Shown: positions 16,132 through 29,769, counted from the stretch's first letter. The stretch: DNA of 64,000 nucleotides from Candidatus Doudnabacteria bacterium (GCA_038230955.1 JBBRMG010000001.1:18312-82311), one strand, 5' to 3'. Made by a program: numbers and translations. Notes: generated by a model from the sequence alone, not told the origin.

Positions 16132-17319
16132 TTACTTAGTAATTTTGACTACCACGCCGGCACCAACTGTGCGGCCACCTTCGCGAATAGCAAACTTACC
16201 TTTTTCTTCCAAAGCGATCGGAGTGATCAACTTGACGGTAACAGTAACTGTATCGCCAGGCATAACCATTTCCTGACCATCAGGAAGGATGACTTCACCA
16301 GTCACGTCGGTTGTACGAACGTAGAACTGAGGTTTGTAACCTTTGAAGAATGGAGTGTGACGTCCACCTTCTTCTTTGGTCAAAACATAAATTTCAGCAT
16401 CGAATTCAGTATGAGGAGTAATAGAACCTGGCTTGGCCAAAACCTGACCACGTTCTACTTCTTCTTTCTTGATACCACGGAGCAACAAACCAGCGTTGTC
16501 ACCGGCCATACCGGAATCCAACTGCTTGTTAAACATTTCAATACCAGTCACAACAGTCTTAGTAGTTGGGCGAATACCGACGATTTCAACATCATTGTTG
16601 ATGTTAATTTCACCACGTTCAATACGACCAGTAACTACAGTACCACGACCTTCAATAGTGAAGATGTCTTCGATAGGCATGAGGAAAGGAAGATCTGTAG
16701 CACGAACTGGATCTGGAATAAATGTGTCCAAAGCATCCATTAACTTATGAATAGATGGTTCGCCCAAGTCAGATGTGTCGCCTTCCAAAGCTTTCAAAGC
16801 GGAACCACGGATAACCGGAGTATCCTTACCTGGGAATTCATACTTGGTCAAAAGATCACGAATTTCTTCTTCAACTAAATCAAGAAGTTCTGCGTCTTGC
16901 ACCATATCACACTTGTTCATGTAAACAACGATGTGAGGCACACCAACTTGCTTAGCAAGCAAGATGTGTTCACGGGTCTGAGGCATAGGACCATCAGTAG
17001 CGGAGACTACGAGGATAGCGCCATCCATTTGAGCCGCACCGGTAATCATATTCTTAATGTAGTCGGCGTGACCAGGACAGTCAACGTGAGCGTAGTGACG
17101 CTTGGCTGTTTCGTATTCTGCGTGTGAGGTATTAATCGTAATACCACGGGCCTTTTCTTCAGGGGCGTTGTCAATGCTCGAGTAATCGCGAGCTTTGGCG
17201 CCACCGGTCTTGGCCAATACCGTTGTGATAGCCGCAGTCAAAGTGGTCTTACCGTGGTCAACGTGACCAATGGTACCGACGTTAACGTGCGTCTTGGAAC
17301 GGTCAAACTTTTCTGCCAT
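16132..17319 (-). CDS. tuf: elongation factor Tu
   Basis: [18 protein letters not shown] and NKCD GTPase motifs. 395 aa. Confidence 0.97.
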
Positions 17320-17577
17320 GTGTTCGTACCTTTCTTGCTGACTACAAAGTAGCGCAGCGATTCACCCGAGATGTCCCTCTCTCCATCCCCTCTGCCGGCC
17401 ACCTTAACACATTATAGTGTCGAGTGGCATCGAGGAGGTAAAGAGAGGGTATCTCTTTTTTTCCTGCTGGAATCCAGAGTGAATAATTAATTATTGATAG
17501 ACAAAAATATGACGGCAAAATACATTGCCAGTCAAGAGTTATTATAATGAGATACCCACCAGCCGTCAAGTTTTAGG

Positions 17578-18096
17578 ATGATTCGCCCAATCCCCCGCGC
17601 CATGGTAAATTACCATAGTATGAATAATGAACCAACGACCAAAATTCTTATCGCCTACAGCACTCTAACCAATAATACGGCCGATGCCGCCACGGCTCTT
17701 CATGAGTCCTTGCGAACAGACTTTCCGGCGCGAATTTTTGAGCTACTTAATATAATCGATATAACTATTGCCCAATTCGCCAATTACGACTTGGTTATTT
17801 TTGGTTCGCCCACCTGGGACGATGGTCCGACTGGCGACACCGAAGCTCTACTCCAAAACCTCGAGGCAACAAAGCCAGATTTGTCCGGTCAAAAATTTGC
17901 CCTATTTGGCTTGGGTGATAAATCTTACGAACCATTCTTCTGCGCCTCTATCTATGAAGTGAAGAAACAATTTGAGAAATATGGCGCACATGTTTTTGCC
18001 GATGTCCATACAATTGACGGCTACCCAATTGATACATTACTAGCCGAACTCGCTCAGTGGGGCAAAACTGTTATTGCAAATATAAATAAGATATAA
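17578..18096 (+). CDS. flavodoxin
   Basis: KILIAYSTLTNNT phosphate-binding loop and the FGSPTWDDG...FGLGDKSY FMN-binding pattern. The true start may be ATG 17620. Confidence 0.8.
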   Translation: MIRPIPRAMVNYHSMNNEPTTKILIAYSTLTNNTADAATALHESLRTDFPARIFELLNIIDITIAQFANYDLVIFGSPTWDDGPTGDTEALLQNLEATKPDLSGQKFALFGLGDKSYEPFFCASIYEVKKQFEKYGAHVFADVHTIDGYPIDTLLAELAQWGKTVIANINKI

Positions 18097-18309
18097 ACTA
18101 AACTTTACTTTTTATTTAGGGGAATTTGATAGGCGTTTGTGTACCATAAATTTGCGTGGGCCAGTCGTCTAACTAGTTAGGACAGGTCCTTGTCAAAGAT
18201 CAAACCCGGGTGCAAGACCCGGCTGGTCCACCATTGACTTGACATGGTAGCAAGTCGTGCTAGAATAATAGTACTTTGACAAGGATCATGGGTATAGAAA
18301 CTTGCACCC

Positions 18310-18345
18310 AAAAAAAACAGCTCTCAGAAATGAGAGCTGTTTTTG
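18310..18345. terminator. bidirectional rho-independent terminator between the convergent flavodoxin and 18363-18698 genes
   Basis: A8 run, then stem cagctctca / tgagagctg, then a T5 run. Confidence 0.75.
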
Positions 18346-18362
18346 TATCCCTTATTATCTTT

Positions 18363-18698
18363 CTAGATATCTTCAAACTCAGTTTGAATGGCTTCGTCAT
18401 CACCGCTACCGTAATCAAAATTAGGATCCATGACTTCGGCGCGCAAATCTACCCTCTGTGGTTTTGGGCTACTAGTGTATGTGTTGGGCATGATCGGCGC
18501 TTCAGCCAACTGAGCTTCAGTAATTTGCCGATTTATACTCTCAATGTCTTCTATCTGATGTTTTAATTTACCCAACAATAAACGCTCATACTCATCAACA
18601 CCCAAAATGACTAACTTAATATCGCCAGACTCGTCCATAATGAATGTTTTGCCAGTGTCGTTCTGAACTAGTTTTATAATATCTTGTAGAGAGGTCAT
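18363..18698 (-). CDS. hypothetical protein with a Phd/YefM-like antitoxin-fold N-terminus and an acidic C-terminal tail
   Basis: The N-terminal 45 aa resemble Phd/YefM (TFIMDESGDIKLVILGVDEYERL). No adjacent toxin. Confidence 0.55.
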   Translation of the reverse strand: MTSLQDIIKLVQNDTGKTFIMDESGDIKLVILGVDEYERLLLGKLKHQIEDIESINRQITEAQLAEAPIMPNTYTSSPKPQRVDLRAEVMDPNFDYGSGDDEAIQTEFEDI

Positions 18699-18781
18699 AT
18701 ATTGACAAATGAATTAGTGTCCCCTATTATATCCTATAACCTCAGAAGGTTCAATGCAGAAAAAACGAAGGAGATATCGCA

Positions 18782-19003
18782 ATGGCAACATATTTTGTTA
18801 GTGGACAACACGTTAAATCAATTCCTGGATTTGGCAACACACCAAACCCTTCTCACTTCGAGATAATCATTGAAGGACCAATAATAAGATCCCAATCGGA
18901 CTACCAGACTCATATTCGAGACCAGGTTGTCGATAAGCTTGACCTCGATACAAGCAAGGATCTTCTGTGGATTAAAACCTGCAATGTCCTCTTTAAGACA
19001 TAG
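18782..19003 (+). CDS. hypothetical small protein
   Basis: 73-aa ORF in an intergenic gap. No motifs. Confidence 0.35.
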   Translation: MATYFVSGQHVKSIPGFGNTPNPSHFEIIIEGPIIRSQSDYQTHIRDQVVDKLDLDTSKDLLWIKTCNVLFKT

Positions 19004-19182
19004 CTATTTGCTTGTTGATTACCAAAAACGCCGCCCGGACCAAAATCCGAGCGGCATCTTTTTTTATAATATCTTGGTGAAGGTTGTAATTTTATCTATA
19101 TATCTCTCAGTATTACTTAAGAAAACCATTGGAGCAACGCGACTGGTTTTCGTAGTAATACTGAAAGATACTAATGTTAATA

Positions 19183-21309
19183 TTACTGTCCCTTACGGAC
19201 ATTAATACCAGCACGAGATTCAACGATCTTTTCAGTCACGTTGCGAGGGACTTCACCATAGTGGTCAAATTCCATAATGGAAGAGGCTTGGCCTTGGGTC
19301 ATAGACCGCAAAGTTGTGGCGTAACCAAACATTTCAGCCAACGGCACTTCAGCAGTAATAATTTTGCGATTAGTAATGTCTTCCATTTCATTAATCCGAG
19401 CACGCTTGGAATTAAGATCACCAATAACATCGCCCATGTTTGCTTCAGGGGTAGTGACAACCACTTTCATGATTGGTTCAAGCAAGATTGGTTCACCCTT
19501 CTTCACTGCTTCTTGGAAAGCCTTCGAACCGGCAATCTTGAACGCCATTTCAGAGGAATCAACTTCATGATATGAACCATCGTACAAAGTGACTTTAAAG
19601 TCGACTACGGGATAACCGGCGATAACACCGTTAGCGGCAGATTCCTGAACACCTTTGTCTACCGGCTTGATGTATTCTTTTGGAATAGCACCACCGACGA
19701 TTTCGTCGACGAACTCATAACCGGCACCGCGCTCAAGTGGGGTAACGCGCAAATATACGTGGCCATATTGACCCCGACCACCAGTTTGGCGGATGTATTT
19801 CGTTTCAGCCTGAGCTTCCTTTTTGAAAGACTCCTTGAAAGCTACTTCAGGCTTACCAACATTGGCTTCTACTTTAAATTCACGCTTCATGCGATCTACC
19901 AAAATTTCCAAATGCAATTCGCCCATACCAGCAATAATAGTTTGCTGAGTTTCTTCGTCGGAAGTAACTTTGAAAGTCGGATCTTCTTCCGCCAATTTCT
20001 GCATAGCAATACCCATTTTTTCTTGGTCAGCCTTTGTCTTCGGCTCAATCGACATAGAAATAACTGGGTCAGCAAATTTAATCTTTTCTAATTCAATGGG
20101 GTCAGATTCCGCGCAAAGGGTGTCGGCAGTAATAGTGTCTTTCGGACCTACTAAAGCACAAATATCACCGGCGTAGACTTCTTTCACTTCATCGCGCTGA
20201 TCAGCGCGCATGCGCACCATACGGCCAACGCGTTCACGGTTGCCACTGCGAGCATTTAGTACATACGAACCAGCTTCCAATTTTCCGGAATACACGCGGA
20301 AGAACACCAGACGACCAACGAATGGGTCGGTAGCGATTTTGAAAGCCAAAGCAGTAAACGGTTCGTCGTCACTTGGGTTACGAATTAGCTCTTCCCCATT
20401 GCGCGGGTTATGCCCCTTTACCGGACCCTTGTCTAACGGGCTTGGCAAGAAGTTAGTAACACCATCAAGCAATGTTCGAACAATGATACCGCGACCATCG
20501 CCGCCGAATACTGGGTAGAACTCACCGGAACGAGTCGCTTTGCGGATAGCAATCATTAATTCTTCTTCAGTCAATTCAGTACCACCAAGATACTTTTCCA
20601 TTAACTGGTCATCGAACTCGACGACCTTCTCTATTAATTCATGTCGATACTTTTCCGCCTTCTCTTTCATGTCAGCCGGTACTTCACCCACGACGAATTC
20701 TTTATCAGTAAAATCAGTGTACGTGTAGGTTTTCATCTGCACCAAATCAATTACACCATTGATTTCTTTTTCGAAACCTAACGGCAATTGGACCGGAAAA
20801 GCGTTCTTGGTTAAACGAGTGTGAATAGATTCAAGCGACTTGTAGAAGTCACCGCCAGTTTGGTTTATTTTGTTGATGAAACACATGCGAGGCACACCAT
20901 ATTTGTCAGCTTGGCGCCACACAGTTTCGCTTTGCGGCTCAACACCCATCTTCCCGTCGAATACGGTAATGGCCCCATCGAGCACACGCAAAGACCGTTC
21001 CACTTCAACGGTAAAGTCTACGTGGCCTGGGGTATCGATAATGTTAATCTTGTACTTCTTGTCTTTTCCATCAATGCTGATGTATTGCGGATTCCAGTAA
21101 CAGGTAACCGCAGCGGAGGTAATGGTAATACCGCGCTCGCGTTCCTGCTCCATCCAGTCAGTCACGGTTTCACCTTCGTGCACCGCACCAATTTTGTGGA
21201 TCATCCCCGTGTGAAAGAGAATACCCTCAGTCGTCGTGGTTTTACCCGCGTCGATGTGAGCGATAATCCCGATATTGCGGGTGTCTTCAATTGCGTAATC
21301 TCGAGGCAT
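19183..21309 (-). CDS. fusA: elongation factor G
   Basis: 708 aa with [17 protein letters not shown] and NKxD motifs. Confidence 0.97.
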
Positions 21310-21357
21310 AGTTTAATGGTTATTTATTGGGGGTTTTATAGGTTTTATTGTCATTAC

Positions 21358-21386
21358 TTGACAAATCTATTTTTTTATGCTATAGT
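21358..21386 (+). promoter_or_regulatory. consensus sigma70-type promoter (TTGACA, 17 nt, TATAGT) driving the small ORF 21409-21567
   Basis: ttgaca at 21358-21363, a 17-nt spacer, tatagt at 21381-21386, then a GGAGGA Shine-Dalgarno 9 nt before the ATG. Confidence 0.65.
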
Positions 21387-21408
21387 GCAGTTGGAGGATA
21401 TAGATTTT

Positions 21409-21567
21409 ATGAGAAACAAGACAGCGAGGGATTATGTATTCCCGATCATTTTATCTGCAATATTCGGTTTTGCTTTTGGCCTCTACAATAGAGGAACTGT
21501 GCAAGCCGGATTAGGATACGCTCTTGTCGGCGCAATCATCAGTTTTGGTATCAGACTAATGATGTAG
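21409..21567 (+). CDS. small hydrophobic protein (52 aa, two predicted TM segments)
   Basis: Near-consensus promoter, strong RBS, and a rho-independent terminator immediately downstream. Lies between fusA and rpsG on the opposite strand. Confidence 0.6.
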   Translation: MRNKTARDYVFPIILSAIFGFAFGLYNRGTVQAGLGYALVGAIISFGIRLMM

Positions 21568-21587
21568 AATTCGATGGGTTGCATGTT

Positions 21588-21623
21588 GACGGTTTGCTTT
21601 CACGAGTGAACCGTCTTTTTTTA
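21588..21623 (+). terminator. rho-independent terminator
   Basis: Stem gacggtt (21588-21594) / aaccgtc (21609-21615), then a T8 run. Confidence 0.75.
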
Positions 21624-21630
21624 TTCCCTA

Positions 21631-22143
21631 CTATTTCCGCTTGTTACCGAACCTTGCAAAGTGAGCAAACGCTTTGTTTGCTTCAGCCATACGGTGAGTA
21701 TCTTCGCGCTTCTTGAAAGCAGTTCCCTGCTTCTGAAAACCATCTAAGATTTCACCGGCCAGCTTCTGAGCCATTGGGGCGCCTTTTTTGCTGCGAGCAG
21801 CATTGATCATCCATTTCATACCTAATGCGGTACGACGAGGTTCTGGTACTTCCATCGGCACCTGGTAGTTTGAGCCACCAATACGGCGACCCTTAATTTC
21901 CATAATTGGGCTGATGTTTTTCAAAGCAGTTTCAAATATTTCGCGATTGTCTTTGTCAGCAGCGTCCGGAATATTCTTGGACTTTTCAGCAACAATATCT
22001 AAAGCTGTGTAAAAGATTTTCTGAGATACGGTCTTCTTGCCGCGTTCCATCATATAGTTGATGAACTTGGCGTACTTCACACTGCTGAACTTTGGATCCG
22101 GCAGTGGAGTGTGTTTATCGTAACTTCTTGCTCTGCGTGGCAT
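21631..22143 (-). CDS. rpsG: 30S ribosomal protein S7
   Basis: 170 aa with S7 motifs and str-operon position. Confidence 0.93.
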   Translation of the reverse strand: MPRRARSYDKHTPLPDPKFSSVKYAKFINYMMERGKKTVSQKIFYTALDIVAEKSKNIPDAADKDNREIFETALKNISPIMEIKGRRIGGSNYQVPMEVPEPRRTALGMKWMINAARSKKGAPMAQKLAGEILDGFQKQGTAFKKREDTHRMAEANKAFAHFARFGNKRK

Positions 22144-22274
22144 GTCGTCGTAAATTTAGTTCCCGGTTTCGTAGTCGAATAAATTCAACTTCTCAACCTT
22201 TCACTAAATTTCTCCTCTAAGAATTTTGCTTAACTCCCTATAGGGAGCCCAAGTAAAATTCTTTGTAATTACTG

Positions 22275-22700
22275 TTAAGCAGCCGGGGCTGGGCGCTTAG
22301 CGCCATATTTGCTGCGAGAGCGTCGACGACCTTCAACGCCTAGAGTATCTAACTTACCGCGGACAATGTGATAGCGCACACCTGGCAAATCTTTCACACG
22401 ACCACCGCGAATCATAACCACACTGTGTTCCTGCAAGTTGTGGCCAACTCCCGGGATATATGCGAGTACTTCCATACCGTTGGTCAATTTGACCTTAGCA
22501 ACCTTACGCAAAGCCGAGTTCGGCTTCTTTGGGGTGGTGGTATAAACCTTTAGACAAACGCCGCGAATAAACGGAGCGCCAGTTGGCAGGTTGATAACCT
22601 TGTTCTTGATAAGGTTCACGCGACGTTGCAGGGCCGGAGATTTGCTCTTCGACTTCAACGGATGGCGTCCCTTTCTCACAATCTGGTTGATTGTAGGCAT
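22275..22700 (-). CDS. rpsL: 30S ribosomal protein S12
   Basis: PTINQxxRKGR N-terminus and PKKPNSAxRKV. Confidence 0.96.
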
Positions 22701-22973
22701 ATCTTACTAAACCTTTCTTTACTTATGCATATAAAAAACTGACAATATAGCGTCAGCTCTATCGTTTCGCACATATGGTACTCTCGTGAAGCCATACGAG
22801 TTAATTCCCATTAAGCGAGTGTATGCAGTAATTACCTAATTAAGGTGGCTTCTTCTAAGTTGTAAACAGATTATACCAGATTGATGCAGGGTTGGTCAAA
22901 TTCAGGGTTTTTCCACGAATTTGACAATTATTAATTATTATTATATCATTAGTATAAATTAATAGTATTCTAT

Positions 22974-23216
22974 ATGTCTACCTCAATTACCAAGCAAAAA
23001 AATGAAGCTCTAAGTATTTCCCTGCCTGCCCAATTAAAGCGGGATTTATTGAAACGGGCTCAAAATGACAACGTTGCCGTTAGTCAAGTAGTAGCTGAGG
23101 CTCTCAAAAAACATTTAATTCTCAAGGAATGGCGGGATTTGCAAGACATTTTTGGACCGGCACTGTTAAAACTTGGTATTGATTCAGATGAAGCAGTTGA
23201 GGAATACTTCGGATAA
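22974..23216 (+). CDS. ribbon-helix-helix (CopG-like) antitoxin
   Basis: 80 aa. The RHH pattern is SISLPAQLKRDLLKRAQNDNVAVSQVVAEAL. Its stop lies 2 nt before the PIN gene start. Confidence 0.7.
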   Translation: MSTSITKQKNEALSISLPAQLKRDLLKRAQNDNVAVSQVVAEALKKHLILKEWRDLQDIFGPALLKLGIDSDEAVEEYFG

Positions 23217-23218
23217 TA

Positions 23219-23641
23219 ATGCGATTTGTATGTGATACAAACATATATCTGGCAGCACTTCGTCGAGGTGGTTTTTGTAATACTGTACTGGAATTGATAT
23301 TAAGCACTGACAATACTCATGAATTGTGGGTTTCTGAATTTATCATTCAAGAAACCAAGAAAAAAGCTGCAGTGTTTGCTCTAAAAAAGCTCGCGTCTCA
23401 ATATGATATTGACAGAATTCTGCAAACAATTGAATCGAGCGCTCATATTTCATTTCCTTCCCGTGAACGAATCACTAATGTCTCACGTGATCCCGACGAC
23501 AATAGAATTCTGGAATGCGCTGTGTCGGCTCAAGCCGATGTTATCGTCACTATGGATAAAGATTTATTGGTGCTAAAACAATTTCGCGGCATTGCCATAG
23601 TCCATCCCAAAACTTTCATTTACATGCAGCCCAAGGACTAA
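23219..23641 (+). CDS. PIN-domain toxin (VapC-like)
   Basis: Acidic PIN residues are present (CDTN near the N-terminus, then DPDDNRILECA and VTMDKD). Confidence 0.75.
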   Translation: MRFVCDTNIYLAALRRGGFCNTVLELILSTDNTHELWVSEFIIQETKKKAAVFALKKLASQYDIDRILQTIESSAHISFPSRERITNVSRDPDDNRILECAVSAQADVIVTMDKDLLVLKQFRGIAIVHPKTFIYMQPKD

Positions 23642-24642
23642 GCATCCTCTCTTGTTAACATTTCCTCTAGCACACTTTCTTTAATACCATAGGTATTGCC
23701 ATGATTCATCAAGCCCAAATATGACTGCAAAGTCTCGTCCATGGGACTATTGCGTAATTGCTTCATCATTCTGCGCTTGGTAGTAGTGCGTATAACAGTG
23801 TGATCAGGAAAATGCACCCAGCCAAGAAAATCTACTCCCGAAACAAAAGTTTTCAGATACAGCTTATCCGGGTGCAATGTCAAATTTAGCCTACTTTTCA
23901 AGAATTCTGAAATTTGGGCAATTTGAGAAATTAACGCTTCTCTATCGTCGGACAAAAATACAAAATCATCAGCGTATCTTATGTAGTATTTTGCGTGCAA
24001 TTTGTGTTTCACAAACTGATCAAACTCATTCATATAAATATTACAGAACAGCTGTGATGTTAAATTACCTAATGGTAACCCAACTCCCGGCAAGGTAGAA
24101 AAACTATCAATAATTTGCTCCAGTAATTGCATTAGAGGTAAGTCCGAAATATATTGAGACAGTATACCTATGAGTACTCCATGATTAATGCTGGCAAAAA
24201 ACTTTTTTATATCACACTTTAAGACCCAACATGTCCGTCTATGGTTTCTACTCACTTTATAGGCAAACGCACGGAACCTCTTTATCGCCTTGTACGTTCC
24301 CTTATCAATCCGGCATGAATAGGAATTAGCAATAAAAGTCCTATCAAAAAACGGATACAATGTCCGGTACAAAGCGTGATGCAAAATCCTGTCTCGCACA
24401 GAAGCCTTGTGAATCTGTCGCGGTTTGGGATCAGTAATGCTAAATGCGCTATAATATGAGTGCTGGTATGTGCCGCTGGCCAAATCCCTATGCAACTCAA
24501 TGAGATTGCCCATTAAATTATGTTCAAATTCTTGCACATCTTTACGCTGTCTTTTGCCCCGAACAAACTCAGTCCATGCTTCCAGTAAATTTTCTAGTGA
24601 AATAATATCTTTATAATCATGTCTGAATTGAACCTTGCTCAT
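23638..24642 (-). CDS. DGR reverse transcriptase
   Basis: YADDFVF catalytic motif. The DGR-specific motif LGNLTSQ carries SQ where other RTs have QGxxxSP. About 335 aa with no maturase or endonuclease domain. A TR/VR pair lies adjacent. The ORF continues 8 codons upstream to a TTG at 24666. Confidence 0.88.
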   Translation of the reverse strand: MSKVQFRHDYKDIISLENLLEAWTEFVRGKRQRKDVQEFEHNLMGNLIELHRDLASGTYQHSYYSAFSITDPKPRQIHKASVRDRILHHALYRTLYPFFDRTFIANSYSCRIDKGTYKAIKRFRAFAYKVSRNHRRTCWVLKCDIKKFFASINHGVLIGILSQYISDLPLMQLLEQIIDSFSTLPGVGLPLGNLTSQLFCNIYMNEFDQFVKHKLHAKYYIRYADDFVFLSDDREALISQIAQISEFLKSRLNLTLHPDKLYLKTFVSGVDFLGWVHFPDHTVIRTTTKRRMMKQLRNSPMDETLQSYLGLMNHGNTYGIKESVLEEMLTREDA

Positions 24643-25023
24643 AGTAATAATAGTACCCCCCCCCAACGGATTTTACCAGTATTGCAAAAAGTAAAAATTG
24701 CCTATTTGCTATGGTTTGATTATTACCAAATTCTGCCCAAGTTACATAGGCATTCATTAGGCCATAAAGTCGATAATTTGTTTGTCGAACTCATAGAAGC
24801 GATAGTTTCTGCCAGTTTCTTGTCCCCGCACGAAAAACTACCTTATATTAGGCTAGCCATTAAGAAAAACGACACAGTCAAAATCCTGTTGATGATGCTA
24901 TGGGAAACCCACTCCCTGGATGGCAAACAATATATTGCGCTGTCTGTAAAAATCGACGAAATCGGAAGAATGCTCGGTGGTTGGAATGGTCAAATCACAA
25001 AACAAAACTCTCCTCGAAAATAG
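24619..25023 (+). CDS. avd: DGR accessory variability determinant (Avd-like)
   Basis: The C-terminus EIGRMLGGWNGQITKQ closely resembles Bordetella phage bAvd (EVGRILGSWIARVNRK), and upstream helices align. Lies next to the TR. It is on the strand opposite to the RT. Confidence 0.7.
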   Translation: MSELNLAHSNNSTPPQRILPVLQKVKIAYLLWFDYYQILPKLHRHSLGHKVDNLFVELIEAIVSASFLSPHEKLPYIRLAIKKNDTVKILLMMLWETHSLDGKQYIALSVKIDEIGRMLGGWNGQITKQNSPRK

Positions 25024-25043
25024 GAGGAGAGAAATGAAAGAGA

Positions 25044-25175
25044 ATTGCGGACGCGAAACACAAACTCGTTGTTGCCATTCCAATGATTGTCTAGCTTGCC
25101 ATTGTTGTTGTTCAACCACGGTTCGTCGTCGTTCCGATTGACGTTGAACAGATTCGGATTGCCGTTCGGGTCAGT
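25044..25175 (-). repeat. DGR template repeat (TR)
   Basis: About 132 nt and about 80% identical to the 3' end of the target gene. Nearly all mismatches place TR adenines on the coding strand against non-A bases in the VR. AAC-rich codons (NNNNG, NGNN). Non-coding. Confidence 0.88.
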
Positions 25176-25493
25176 TTTGTATAATATGCCGTCTGCTACA
25201 CCATCCTTTGAGTGCTCTGTTAGCATTCTGGGGATTGAATCGTATTCGGCATTTAAATATGCCCTAGCATACTACACCAAGTTTCTTCATTTTTTTGAAG
25301 TGTCTGCATGCACCACTCTATTTTTAACCGTAATCAAAAATATTCCCGAGGCATGGATACTGGATTCGGTAGCAAACAACCATAATCGTTTGCGTATGCA
25401 CCTATTACCAATGGTATTATAGCAAAAATTTAGGCTGCAAAGGACAAAGATACAAAGTGCCAAGACTAGAGCAAGCTAGTCAAGCACCAAGGA

Positions 25494-27587
25494 CTATTTG
25501 CGGACGCGAAACACAAACCCGTCGCTGCCATCCCAACGATCGCCTAGCTTGCCACTGCTGCTGAGCAACCACGGCCCGTCGTCGTGCCGATAGACGTCGA
25601 ACAGACGCGGACCGCCACCCGAGCCAGTTATGGGGTCCATGGCTATTCTTAAGTATTCACCATTCGGCTGGTCAGCATATGCCAATCTCAATTCTGGCCC
25701 TGTTTGCGGCGGACACAGTTCTAAATTTAATTCTTTAACCCTGTTGAAAATAGCTTCTAGGTTAGCACCGTTAGGAAATCCTAATTGCTCGACCGTAAAT
25801 TTAACCAAATCAACGCGTTCAGACTCGGACAATGCCCGTATTTTTACCAACATGCTTTTAGCGTAGTCAGATATTCTATTTCCTGTTTTCACTAGCTCCT
25901 GCTCGTATTGCATAGGAGTTTTAGTAGACAGCTCAATAGTTTTTCTGAATATCTTTTTCTCTGGGAAAGACTCATATAAATGCTGAATATGTTCAGGCAT
26001 TGTTCGCATTATGTCCGGAGACCACTGGCCAATATATAACTTTGTAGATTCCTTTATTTCCTGCTGCCCCAGAGCGATTTCTTCAGGCTTGCAGTCTATA
26101 TTGGCCACAATGCGAATAATCTTAGCGACGTCGGTCCTAGTCATATCAGGCGTAATTTCCATCTCACCCATTTTGAGGACAAAGACATTGTCATCCGGGT
26201 TAAAATCGTGAAAATCAACTTCACCATGCTCGGTTAAAATATGGTAGTCTTTGACTTTAATATTTCCCAGTTCGCTGTCAGAAATTTTCCTAAAGTCCCG
26301 CAGTTGGCCGGTGTCCGTTTGGGTAGTGCGAAGCTGTTTCAAAGCATCGATTACATCTGCAAAGTAAGGATCCTCCGGACTTAGGTATTCATCGTCCTGC
26401 TTCTTCATTTGCTCAATAGTTTTGGTTTTAAGATTATATTCCATTGTAATAATGGGCGTATCTCGATATACCTTTTGGCTACCGTTATCAAACTTAGGAG
26501 TTACCCTGAATGACAAAATTTCAATTTCACCACGCTTCATCTGGTTGATATACGAATCGCTTGTGCCAACGCAGTGTCTCATGTATTCTGATTCTTCCTC
26601 TAAGTGCGGCATGTTCAGCATGCGAGCGACATAATATTTACCTGACTCAGTTTGAACTAGATTTTCCCACGGATTCACCGCTGCGCTGTCTCCCATTTCC
26701 GCCCGCTTTTTGCGCATCTCTGCAATTTTTTGCAAAGTTTTTTCTTGGTGAACTTCCAGTAGCCGGTGCAAGCTACCTTTATCCGTATCGATAAATTTAG
26801 GGCTTTCGATAATAGCGTCAAATAAGTCATTCAAATCTATACTTTCATTGGCCGTGAAATGACGCGCCAATTTGAGTCTCAGCACGCTCTGCTGGCGCTG
26901 ATCAAAAGCAAAGTCTTGCTGACCGGAAAGCCTGCCACTTAAAGTTTGGTACGCACCATTGATGGCACTTTCTTTTTGCGGCTTGTTGTCAGGAGAAAAT
27001 GAACCCAAGGTTTGTTGGTATCGTTGGTTGAGTTCAGTTAAATACTTGGCTTCAAAAGCTTTTTTACGTTCTTCATCAACTTGCTCTGGCGATTTATCTT
27101 CTGTCAGTGGTTTCTCGTAATAATCGACTGCGTATCCTGCCATATTGTCTGTACGAATGCGTTCAAAGCCGAATCGTTCTAGGACATGATTCAACCTATC
27201 ATTCCAGCCATGAAAATTGAGCCGCATATAACCTTGTTGTTTTGCGTATTCTATGAAAGCTGGTATCTCCCGTAAAGCGCTGCGACCAGTCTGACGGGTA
27301 GTGCCGAAATACTTTATGTAAGCTTCATGCGGAATAAATTCTTCGCAGGCAATATAGCCAGTTATTTCACCTTTATCGCCAGTAATCAATTTGTTGAGAG
27401 GATGGCCATTTTCAAGTGTGCGGATGACATCCTCTACTGCCATAGACCGAATAGCCTCATCCACTTCAGTAATGCCTTGTGTGATAGCGCGGACGCTATC
27501 TTTTTGCTCCTCATTCATAACCAAGCCCGGCTTTTCTTCCAAGCGTTCCGGTATATATACGGTTTCTGGTGTATGACCTGTTTCCAT
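25494..27587 (-). CDS. DGR target protein carrying the C-terminal VR
   Basis: 698 aa from ATG 27587. The ORF is open to 27650 but that would overlap the upstream gene. The C-terminal 44 aa are encoded by the VR (…DPITGSGGGPRLFDVYRHDDGPWLLSSSGKLGDRWDGSDGFVFRVRK). Confidence 0.8.
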   Translation of the reverse strand: METGHTPETVYIPERLEEKPGLVMNEEQKDSVRAITQGITEVDEAIRSMAVEDVIRTLENGHPLNKLITGDKGEITGYIACEEFIPHEAYIKYFGTTRQTGRSALREIPAFIEYAKQQGYMRLNFHGWNDRLNHVLERFGFERIRTDNMAGYAVDYYEKPLTEDKSPEQVDEERKKAFEAKYLTELNQRYQQTLGSFSPDNKPQKESAINGAYQTLSGRLSGQQDFAFDQRQQSVLRLKLARHFTANESIDLNDLFDAIIESPKFIDTDKGSLHRLLEVHQEKTLQKIAEMRKKRAEMGDSAAVNPWENLVQTESGKYYVARMLNMPHLEEESEYMRHCVGTSDSYINQMKRGEIEILSFRVTPKFDNGSQKVYRDTPIITMEYNLKTKTIEQMKKQDDEYLSPEDPYFADVIDALKQLRTTQTDTGQLRDFRKISDSELGNIKVKDYHILTEHGEVDFHDFNPDDNVFVLKMGEMEITPDMTRTDVAKIIRIVANIDCKPEEIALGQQEIKESTKLYIGQWSPDIMRTMPEHIQHLYESFPEKKIFRKTIELSTKTPMQYEQELVKTGNRISDYAKSMLVKIRALSESERVDLVKFTVEQLGFPNGANLEAIFNRVKELNLELCPPQTGPELRLAYADQPNGEYLRIAMDPITGSGGGPRLFDVYRHDDGPWLLSSSGKLGDRWDGSDGFVFRVRK
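25497..25628 (-). repeat. DGR variable repeat (VR) at the 3' end of the target gene
   Basis: Aligns to the TR with about 25 adenine-specific substitutions. Followed 6 nt after the stop codon by the hairpin 25457-25487. Confidence 0.88.
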
Positions 27588-29339: not shown

Positions 29340-29580
29340 CATGGCGGAGAGTTGTCTGGAGTGACAAGGACTGACAAAACCGTTATACTGTTTTTACCAT
29401 TCAGCCTAAACTCATGGTTTCAAACCCGTGGGCATGGCACAAAAACCTTTCAGAACATGCGGCTCTCCGTCCAGAGCTCTGAAAGGTCATGGCTCGAAAG
29501 GGTCATGGGTAGGTTTCCTACTTCTGGCGGGGGGCTTTATGTTTGCCCGCCCAAAGTACGAACCTCCATAGGGAGGTTTT
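29340..29580 (+). promoter_or_regulatory. candidate structured 5' leader or ncRNA of about 240 nt, ending in an RBS-sequestering hairpin before the small ORF 29581-29769
   Basis: A TATAAT-like -10 box lies at about 29326. Several stable hairpins are present (cctttcagaa...ctctgaaagg; ggcggg...cccgcc; cctccatagggagg). The last hairpin pairs the AGGGAGG Shine-Dalgarno sequence. Confidence 0.4.
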
Positions 29581-29769
29581 ATGTTTTCAGATTACGCAAA
29601 GGATCGAATTATTGAACTGGTCGCGGTCATAGAACTATCGCTTATCCTGGTAGGGGTTATGTTCTATTATCTTTTCCTTCTCCCTCAACAGCAGGAAAAA
29701 TGTCAGCGAGGCAATTCACGTGGGACCAGTGGAATCTCGCAGGAAGCAAAAATAAAAACCCAAAAATAA
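29581..29769 (+). CDS. small single-pass membrane protein (62 aa)
   Basis: AGGGAGG RBS 5 nt upstream, a TM helix, and a terminator-like palindrome downstream. Confidence 0.5.
   Translation: MFSDYAKDRIIELVAVIELSLILVGVMFYYLFLLPQQQEKCQRGNSRGTSGISQEAKIKTQK

Follow-up and report, generated by a model that had tools for sequence, protein, structure and literature searches.

A candidate small membrane protein gene in a recurrent antisense slot between rpsG and fusA of soil Saccharibacteria

We analysed a stretch of bacterial DNA of 64,000 nucleotides (the window) and found, in the spacer between rpsG (S7) and fusA (EF-G), a short unit on the opposite strand that is probably a genuine, independently transcribed small gene; on this reading, a clade of soil Saccharibacteria would keep an antisense slot at a fixed position in its str operon, and the gene would be the cargo specific to this lineage. 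The ordered succession of promoter, Shine–Dalgarno (SD) sequence, ATG, open reading frame (ORF) and terminator exactly fills the spacer and, together with its recurrence in relatives, constitutes strong sequence-level evidence that the arrangement goes beyond chance. Taken alone, the 52-aa ORF would be one more unannotated orphan small membrane protein, of use mainly as a reminder that genes of this kind escape notice in Saccharibacteria and the rest of the candidate phyla radiation (CPR). More interest attaches to the comparison with relatives: across a broad clade, a junction in one of the most conserved operons of bacteria is found either empty or carrying a unit that runs backwards. Such a slot could serve as a compact natural system in which to follow how small proteins turn over, or arise de novo, while the expression signal stays fixed, and as a testable example of an essential operon and an accessory gene transcribed towards each other. 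It could also supply candidate membrane effectors of epibiotic bacteria, whose genes for host interaction and defence are little characterised. In a full-text search of the literature we found no account of a slot for antisense small genes between rpsG and fusA, and nothing pertinent on small proteins or type I toxins of Saccharibacteria.

Expression signals and coding potential in the rpsG–fusA spacer

The junction and the unit within it consist of the following features, with positions counted from the first letter of the window and L numbers denoting related loci.

19183–21309, − strand: fusA (EF-G), with its start codon 49 nt from the −35 hexamer of the + strand promoter
21310–21630: rpsG–fusA spacer, 321 nt, between two − strand genes
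21310–21333, − strand: fusA-proximal leader block CCAATAAATAACCATTAAACT, before the fusA ATG and without SD, conserved in the window and in L082, L163 and L164
21358–21363, + strand: −35 hexamer TTGACA, invariant as TTGACAA in the six closest filled lineages
21378–21386, + strand: extended −10 element TGcTATAGT (TG at 21378–21379, TATAGT at 21381–21386), with a 17-nt spacer between the −35 hexamer and TATAGT
21393–21398, + strand: SD sequence GGAGGA, 10 nt before the ATG at 21409
21409–21567, + strand: ORF of 52 codons plus TAG (stop at 21565–21567), ending 20 nt before the hairpin
21588–21622, + strand: intrinsic terminator, hairpin 21588–21615 and T7 run 21616–21622, ending 8 nt before the rpsG stop codon
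21631–22143, − strand: rpsG (S7); RNA reading through from it would be antisense along the entire cassette
22870–22899, − strand: probable str operon promoter upstream of rpsL, from the promoter scan (TTGACC, 18 nt, TATAAT with TG)

An earlier, sequence-only reading of this DNA had described a self-contained + strand transcription unit made of TTGACA, a 17-nt spacer, TATAGT, GGAGGA, an ATG, a 52-codon ORF and a hairpin. We found each of these signals where it had been placed; the T8 run given for the terminator is a T7 run, and the TG of the extended −10 element had gone unmentioned. The same reading had ranked the promoter and ribosome-binding signals as the strongest of the window, which holds for their combination and not for the hexamers. 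The latter score 11/12 at 17-nt spacing, a value reached by eight sites in the 64-kb window, three of them with TG. On the other hand, no other 11/12 site has GGAGGA and an ATG in the next 25 nt, and the cassette is the sole match in the window to the extended pattern TTGACA-N14-TGNTATANT even when one mismatch is allowed. By chance, 0.16 matches to that pattern are expected per window, and 16 of 100 shuffles contained at least one.

The SD sequence lies ~7 nt after the −10 element and would thus be at, or adjoin, the 5′ end of the transcript, giving a predicted leader of ~16 nt; it is unpaired in both the MFE and the centroid fold of the predicted mRNA. The terminator hairpin has 12 pairs (5 G–C) and a loop of 4, with a predicted energy of −14.8 kcal/mol, and contains the most stem pairs among the 13 terminator-like sites found in a 9-kb scan (17000–26000). 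The predicted unit is compact, ~230 nt, and carries no leftover pseudogene sequence. GC skew is positive over 21300–21600 only and negative in the surrounding region, a sign switch that is expected for a + strand unit among − strand genes. An Rfam search of 21250–21700 identified no structured RNA (best match 17.7 bits vs. the 58.7-bit threshold), and the spacers of the relatives gave no Rfam matches. We also considered a mobile element (IS, MITE or integrated cassette) and rejected it: the region 21200–21750 has only short chance-level repeats, none of them bracketing the cassette, and no integrase or recombinase, tRNA, TIR or TSD, and no second copy of the cassette or paralogue of the ORF was found in the 64-kb window.

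The ORF encodes the peptide MRNKTARDYVFPIILSAIFGFAFGLYNRGTVQAGLGYALVGAIISFGIRLMM, which has a basic N-terminus (MRNKTAR) and two hydrophobic segments joined by NRGTVQAG, and includes the stretch MRNKTARDYVFPIILSAIFGFAFGLYNR. AlphaFold2, run with no alignment, gave helices at residues 2–26 and 31–51 with a mean pLDDT of 84.6, and the maximum 17-residue hydropathy is 2.09; the product is accordingly predicted to be a two-helix hydrophobic hairpin, as the sequence-only reading had supposed from its two transmembrane (TM) helices. The hydrophobicity alone is weak evidence and only mildly unusual for a T-rich strand, being matched by 11–19% of random ORFs of the spacer's composition (38% T on the + strand). 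For the same composition, the probability of a frame staying open for at least 52 codons after an ATG is ~0.03. Among the six frames, that of the ORF fits the codon usage of the window best, with purine-rich first and T-rich second positions. Its codon score of −0.04 bits per codon falls between those of coding windows (0.26 ± 0.12) and off-frame windows (−0.73 ± 0.36), exceeding 99% of the off-frame windows yet staying below 99% of the true in-frame windows. The GC content of the ORF is 42%, vs. 43% for its genome. As noted earlier, the frame is open far upstream into fusA, spanning 248 codons at 20821–21567, which follows from its being antisense to fusA; the earlier restriction of plausible coding sequence to the final 52 codons also stands, since the upstream frame overlaps the promoter and fusA. 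An 83-codon version starting from the ATG at 21316 was rejected, as it has no SD, begins 7 nt from the fusA start and contains the promoter.

Searches with the 52-aa peptide gave no match in Pfam, NCBIfam, PADLOC or PHROGs, even at E = 1–10, no candidate in a word-indexed search of 5.8 billion proteins and no record in an exact-sequence look-up. An exhaustive phmmer search against 1.84 billion representatives returned only two marginal hits (E = 4e-4 and 1e-3); these are long unrelated proteins whose similarity we judged compositional, and they were rejected as homologues. We took the G-x3-G-like pattern of the peptide to resemble GlsB/YeaQ/YmgE (PF04226), and rejected this and other glycine-rich small membrane families, having no Pfam or NCBIfam match at E up to 10. 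With tblastn, nothing was found in IMG/VR, phage genomes or plasmids, and the 160+ related loci contained only an identical copy (L081). This copy comes from a Logan assembly in which the whole junction is identical to that of the window and no gene is called between rpsG and fusA; protein databases are thus blind to such ORFs, and their silence is weak evidence. An exact look-up of rpsL for near-identical strains gave no record.

On the − strand, the promoter scan found no promoter-like sites of at least 9/12 within 21300–22870, and the site before rpsL (22870–22899) is the sole promoter-like site upstream of fusA. A weak divergent candidate (TTGTCA, 18 nt, TATAAA), overlapping the −35 hexamer on the opposite strand, may act as a fusA promoter. 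The terminator scan found no terminator-like site on the − strand between rpsG and fusA, and a role of the hairpin as a bidirectional terminator of rpsG was rejected, the − strand sequence after it being AACAUGCAACCC, without a U-run. Because rpsG lacks a terminator downstream and fusA a recognisable promoter of its own, read-through from the promoter before rpsL is the most likely way in which fusA is transcribed.

Several other features surround the str genes. The tuf gene (16132–17319, Pfam-confirmed) and the gap of ~1.9 kb that separates it from fusA together span 16132–19182. Within the gap are a + strand flavodoxin gene (17578–18096), a + strand tRNA (18158–18230) and an ORF of 111 aa on the − strand, so that this genome no longer has the str operon in its classical, unbroken form. 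A second opposite-strand unit is located just downstream of fusA and convergent with it (18702–19003, + strand), with TTGACA, 17 nt, TATTAT (11/12), AGGAG and a 73-aa ORF that has no Pfam family. An opposite-strand small gene directly follows fusA in L163 (7211–7414) and L164 (7182–7529) as well, which raises the possibility of a second variable antisense slot in the str region. Just upstream of the str promoter (22974–24666), an 80-aa ORF and a PIN-domain protein (PF13470, E = 4e-15) look like a VapBC-like pair and are followed by a convergent 342-aa reverse transcriptase (PF00078, E = 4e-22); in L164, too, a PIN gene and its partner of 79 aa precede rpsL. Farther away (29403–29766), a LOOT RNA (RF03000, 73 bits; 29403–29522, + strand) lies ~60 nt before an SD-led ORF whose 62-aa product has a single strongly hydrophobic segment and matches no Pfam family.

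The junction in related lineages

By its S7 protein, the window groups with Saccharibacteria of soil and rhizosphere: the protein is 67% identical to that of the best GTDB genome and 82–93% identical to those of metagenomic contigs. The samples in which this organism occurs include SRR19962015 and related rhizosphere runs. Within this clade, the length of the rpsG–fusA spacer ranges from 13 to 983 nt, vs. 18–67 nt in unrelated bacteria from the same scans. Seven lineages have an empty junction, with an AT-rich spacer of 13–48 nt and no SD before fusA. They include L162 (30 nt), which at 93% S7 identity is the closest relative with the junction, as well as L083 (16 nt, 84%) and L088 (13 nt, 78%), the others being L095, L097, L100 and L109. 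The 13–30-nt spacers of the close relatives L162, L083 and L088 fit the earlier description of the unit as inserted.

At least 15 Saccharibacteria lineages have a filled junction, with a unit on the strand opposite rpsG and fusA. The layout is shared: a −35-like hexamer, 17 nt, an extended −10 element (TGnTAnnnT), a GGAGG-type SD and an ORF, followed in most units by a hairpin and T-run. The hairpin and T-run abut the rpsG stop codon in L082, L084, L086, L089, L093, L163, L164, L168 and L169. For the six closest filled lineages (the window, L082, L163, L164, L168 and L169; 82–88% S7 identity), we compared the promoters in an alignment (A3). In all six, the terminator abuts the rpsG stop and the promoter is located 25–55 nt from the fusA start, as in the window, and the ACTTGACAA and T-TG-nTAnAnT columns are invariant while neighbouring positions vary. 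A distant subgroup has a version with a pyrimidine-rich promoter spacer, CTCTCTCTTTGnTATnnT; among the fetched loci, this motif is found at this junction only, with the one exception of L127, where it is downstream of fusA.

In a more distant subgroup, the opposite-strand units of L002, L111, L117, L122, L123, L125, L126 and L130 share the transcript start TGTCC(A)ACA, and in most members of this subgroup GGAC occurs at or next to the SD. In L123/L126, the stem shows an apparently compensatory difference, CCGAC/GTCGG versus CCGGC/GCCGG. The leader of this subgroup could be SD-masking; it is absent from the unit of the window.

All the nearest filled relatives (82–88% S7 identity) encode small multi-TM proteins of 75–134 aa in the slot:

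L169: 75 aa, small multi-TM cargo
L168: 87 and 83 aa, small multi-TM cargo
L163: 106 aa (4586–4906), small multi-TM cargo
L164: 112 aa, small multi-TM cargo
L082: 134 aa, small multi-TM cargo, itself an orphan

No similarity was detectable among the cargos of these nearest relatives or between them and the 52-aa peptide of the window, and the lack of mutual homology among the membrane cargos of L082, L163 and L164 meant that no profile could be built. In other lineages, the cargo is a hydrophilic ORF of 65–145 aa or a 234-aa ORF, none of them with a Pfam family. Over the slot as a whole, cargo lengths span 41–234 aa, and both hydrophobic and hydrophilic products occur. An all-against-all comparison of 17 opposite-strand ORFs revealed a single homologous pair, L002/L113 (32% identity, E = 6e-13), whose protein-level conservation indicates that the slot can encode genuine proteins. 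In 10 cassettes the frame led by the SD remains open, with a joint probability of ~1e-20 under composition alone, which argues that translation through the unit is maintained across the class. In the eight of these cassettes with a T-run of at least five, the ORF ends 36–100 nt before the run. The cargo of L163 has a GC content of 61%, vs. 46–49% in its flanks, which suggests a foreign origin or a strong compositional bias.

The sequence-only reading had proposed looking for the ORF at the rpsG–fusA junction of related genomes. Conservation of the ORF sequence was found in no relative, an outcome that counts against that reading by its own terms; what recurs is the slot, in which a promoter and a terminator on the opposite strand enclose an open frame led by a strong SD. 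Since homologues of the ORF are lacking and the closest relative, L162, does not carry it, purifying selection on this peptide cannot be shown. Descent from the 134-aa protein of L082 was examined separately and rejected as unsupported: by eye the C-terminal helix GTVQAGLGYALVGAIISFG resembles GTQIAFVGFALVAMAGAIATF, the BLASTP E value is 2.3, and the DNA of the window and L082 aligns over the promoter only. In L124, a 983-nt spacer (5615–6599) is filled by two paralogous same-strand ORFs of 139 and 148 aa, with no opposite-strand unit in their place; the two share a 'GxDPKTGLF' motif and have no Pfam family.

Proposed mechanism and competing explanations

Under the interpretation that we favour, a small gene in a conserved slot, a sigma-70-type RNA polymerase would start at ~21393 from the near-consensus extended −10 promoter, and the mRNA, beginning almost at the SD, would be translated into the 52-residue helical hairpin. 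Hydropathy and the positive-inside rule predict that the MRNKTAR N-terminus stays in the cytoplasm and that the two helices insert with an N-in/C-in topology. Transcription should end at the hairpin and T7 run, and as this is 8 nt short of the rpsG stop codon, rpsG would not be read antisense. The read-through RNA of the str operon would match the small mRNA as a perfect complement over its full ~230 nt, and polymerases coming from the two promoters would collide, a part of the model that we purely infer. Complementarity and collision together predict reciprocal expression, the peptide being low under heavy str transcription and rising at its shut-down. Over longer times, selection would maintain the slot, with the promoter beside fusA, the SD, the open frame and the terminator beside rpsG, and the cargo would be replaced, or diverge beyond recognition, between lineages. 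The exchange of cargo could possibly occur by recombination, with the highly conserved rpsG and fusA as homology arms.

A far-reaching extension of this model, which we hold to be a long shot, is a 'sentinel slot' in which the conserved antisense promoter drives hypervariable small membrane proteins whose mRNAs are silenced by str read-through. Collapse of ribosomal-operon transcription, through phage shut-off, starvation or loss of the host, would then unleash a membrane-active effector, and the cargo would diversify under an arms race. If true, the mRNA of an essential operon would act as the antitoxin, in a scheme like that of type I toxins or of abortive infection.

The conservation of the promoter core and of the terminator position, with 17 or more cargo ORFs unrelated except for one pair, would also be expected if antisense transcription itself were selected and the peptide sequence were irrelevant. 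The outward promoter would then oppose the read-through from rpsG to fusA and tune or uncouple EF-G from S12 and S7, either by transcriptional interference or by RNA duplex formation, and the ORF would be translated, for example, to protect the RNA or to prevent premature termination. The breadth of the cargo in length and hydropathy (41–234 aa, hydrophobic to hydrophilic) is consistent with this, and the hydrophobicity of the window's ORF is largely explained by strand composition. On the other hand, the unit is missing from seven lineages including the closest relative and is thus not needed for the function of the str operon, and every cassette has a strong SD and an ORF open far beyond chance. 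The multi-TM nature of all the nearest filled relatives, one of them with a GC-rich cargo that T-richness cannot explain, and the protein-level conservation of the L002/L113 pair likewise speak against it. We consider it unlikely that antisense transcription alone accounts for the slot.

Some of the same observations bear on the possibility of a type I toxin-like module, in which the 52-aa peptide would damage the membrane, its mRNA being neutralised by the abundant antisense str read-through RNA, until starvation or phage shut-off lets the toxin arrest or kill the cell. A small, hydrophobic, orphan peptide with its own strong promoter and a predicted fully complementary antisense transcript is what such a module would look like. 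Among the relatives, several units encode one-TM peptides of 41–51 aa, three with a basic amphipathic tail (L001, L122 and L130) and also L092, and the subgroup with the conserved leader (TGTCC...GGAC) could mask its SD. The window itself points the other way: no dedicated antitoxin promoter of at least 9/12 is present on the − strand of 21300–22870, the leader is only ~16 nt with the SD unpaired, no paralogous copies occur in the window, and the peptide has no similarity to any toxin family or PADLOC model. Many cargos of the same slot are, moreover, hydrophilic or proteins of 100–230 aa. Taken together, a toxin module seems quite unlikely.

Finally, the slot may formerly have contained a larger membrane-protein gene like those of L082, L163 and L164, in which case the window would retain a remnant in decay, with a 52-codon frame that is due to chance or degradation and makes no useful product. 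We regard this as very unlikely: against a length two to three times below that of the cargo in the nearest relatives, an intermediate codon score, an open-frame probability of just 0.03 by itself and the lack of conservation, there stand a perfect GGAGGA 10 nt before the first ATG after the predicted transcript start, an ORF ending 20 nt before the hairpin in a compact 230-nt unit without pseudogene debris, a promoter that is still near-consensus and no DNA similarity to the L082 cargo beyond that promoter.

Comparison with known systems

Type I toxins such as Hok, TisB, Ldr, Ibs, Fst and AapA1 are hydrophobic helical peptides of <60 aa, encoded in intergenic regions under their own promoter and opposed by a complementary cis-antisense RNA (PMC2887945, PMC8309996). 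The peptide of the window is likewise <60 aa, hydrophobic, helical and intergenic with its own promoter; its sequence is orphan and fast-evolving, and a perfectly complementary cis-antisense RNA is predicted. In contrast, the window has no dedicated antitoxin sRNA gene, and the only source of antisense RNA would be the read-through of an essential operon. The mRNAs of known type I toxins have long structured leaders, whereas the leader here is predicted to be very short and unstructured, with an exposed SD. The peptide has two predicted TM helices rather than one, shows no homology to known families and is known here from sequence alone, and in other lineages the same slot holds hydrophilic and larger cargos.

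Small regulatory membrane proteins of the AcrZ, MgtS, KdpF and MgrB class have been reviewed elsewhere (PMC12648545). The unit resembles them in size range, in the helical TM architecture, and in being a stand-alone short gene of a kind often missed by annotation pipelines. Members of that class are conserved within lineages and usually linked to the operon or regulon of their partner, whereas the ORF of the window is an orphan for which no partner could be identified, and it runs antisense to the ribosomal-protein and EF-G genes of the operon around it. In form, the unit is like both type I toxins and small regulatory membrane proteins, yet on the properties that can be tested it belongs to no named family; in its predicted working it is akin to a small-ORF cis-antisense cassette.

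The arrangement of the transcripts recalls the excludons of Listeria, oppositely oriented units with overlapping transcripts and mutually exclusive expression. Here, too, two units are opposed and their transcripts are predicted to overlap completely; unlike in Listeria, the long transcript would be the constitutive mRNA of the str operon and the short one the mRNA of a small ORF, both known from sequence alone.

The pattern across lineages recalls that of flexible genomic islets or replacement hot spots, in which variable cargo is flanked by conserved core genes. As in these, the junction is empty in some lineages and holds unrelated cargo in others, its flanks are among the most conserved genes, and one cargo (L163) has a deviant GC content (0.61 vs. 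0.46–0.49). The slot differs in being tiny, with one or two small genes that are always on the opposite strand, in having no integrase, tRNA, repeat or TSD, and in keeping a conserved promoter and terminator while the cargo changes. Judged from these sequence comparisons, the locus appears to behave like a miniature replacement hot spot between core genes.
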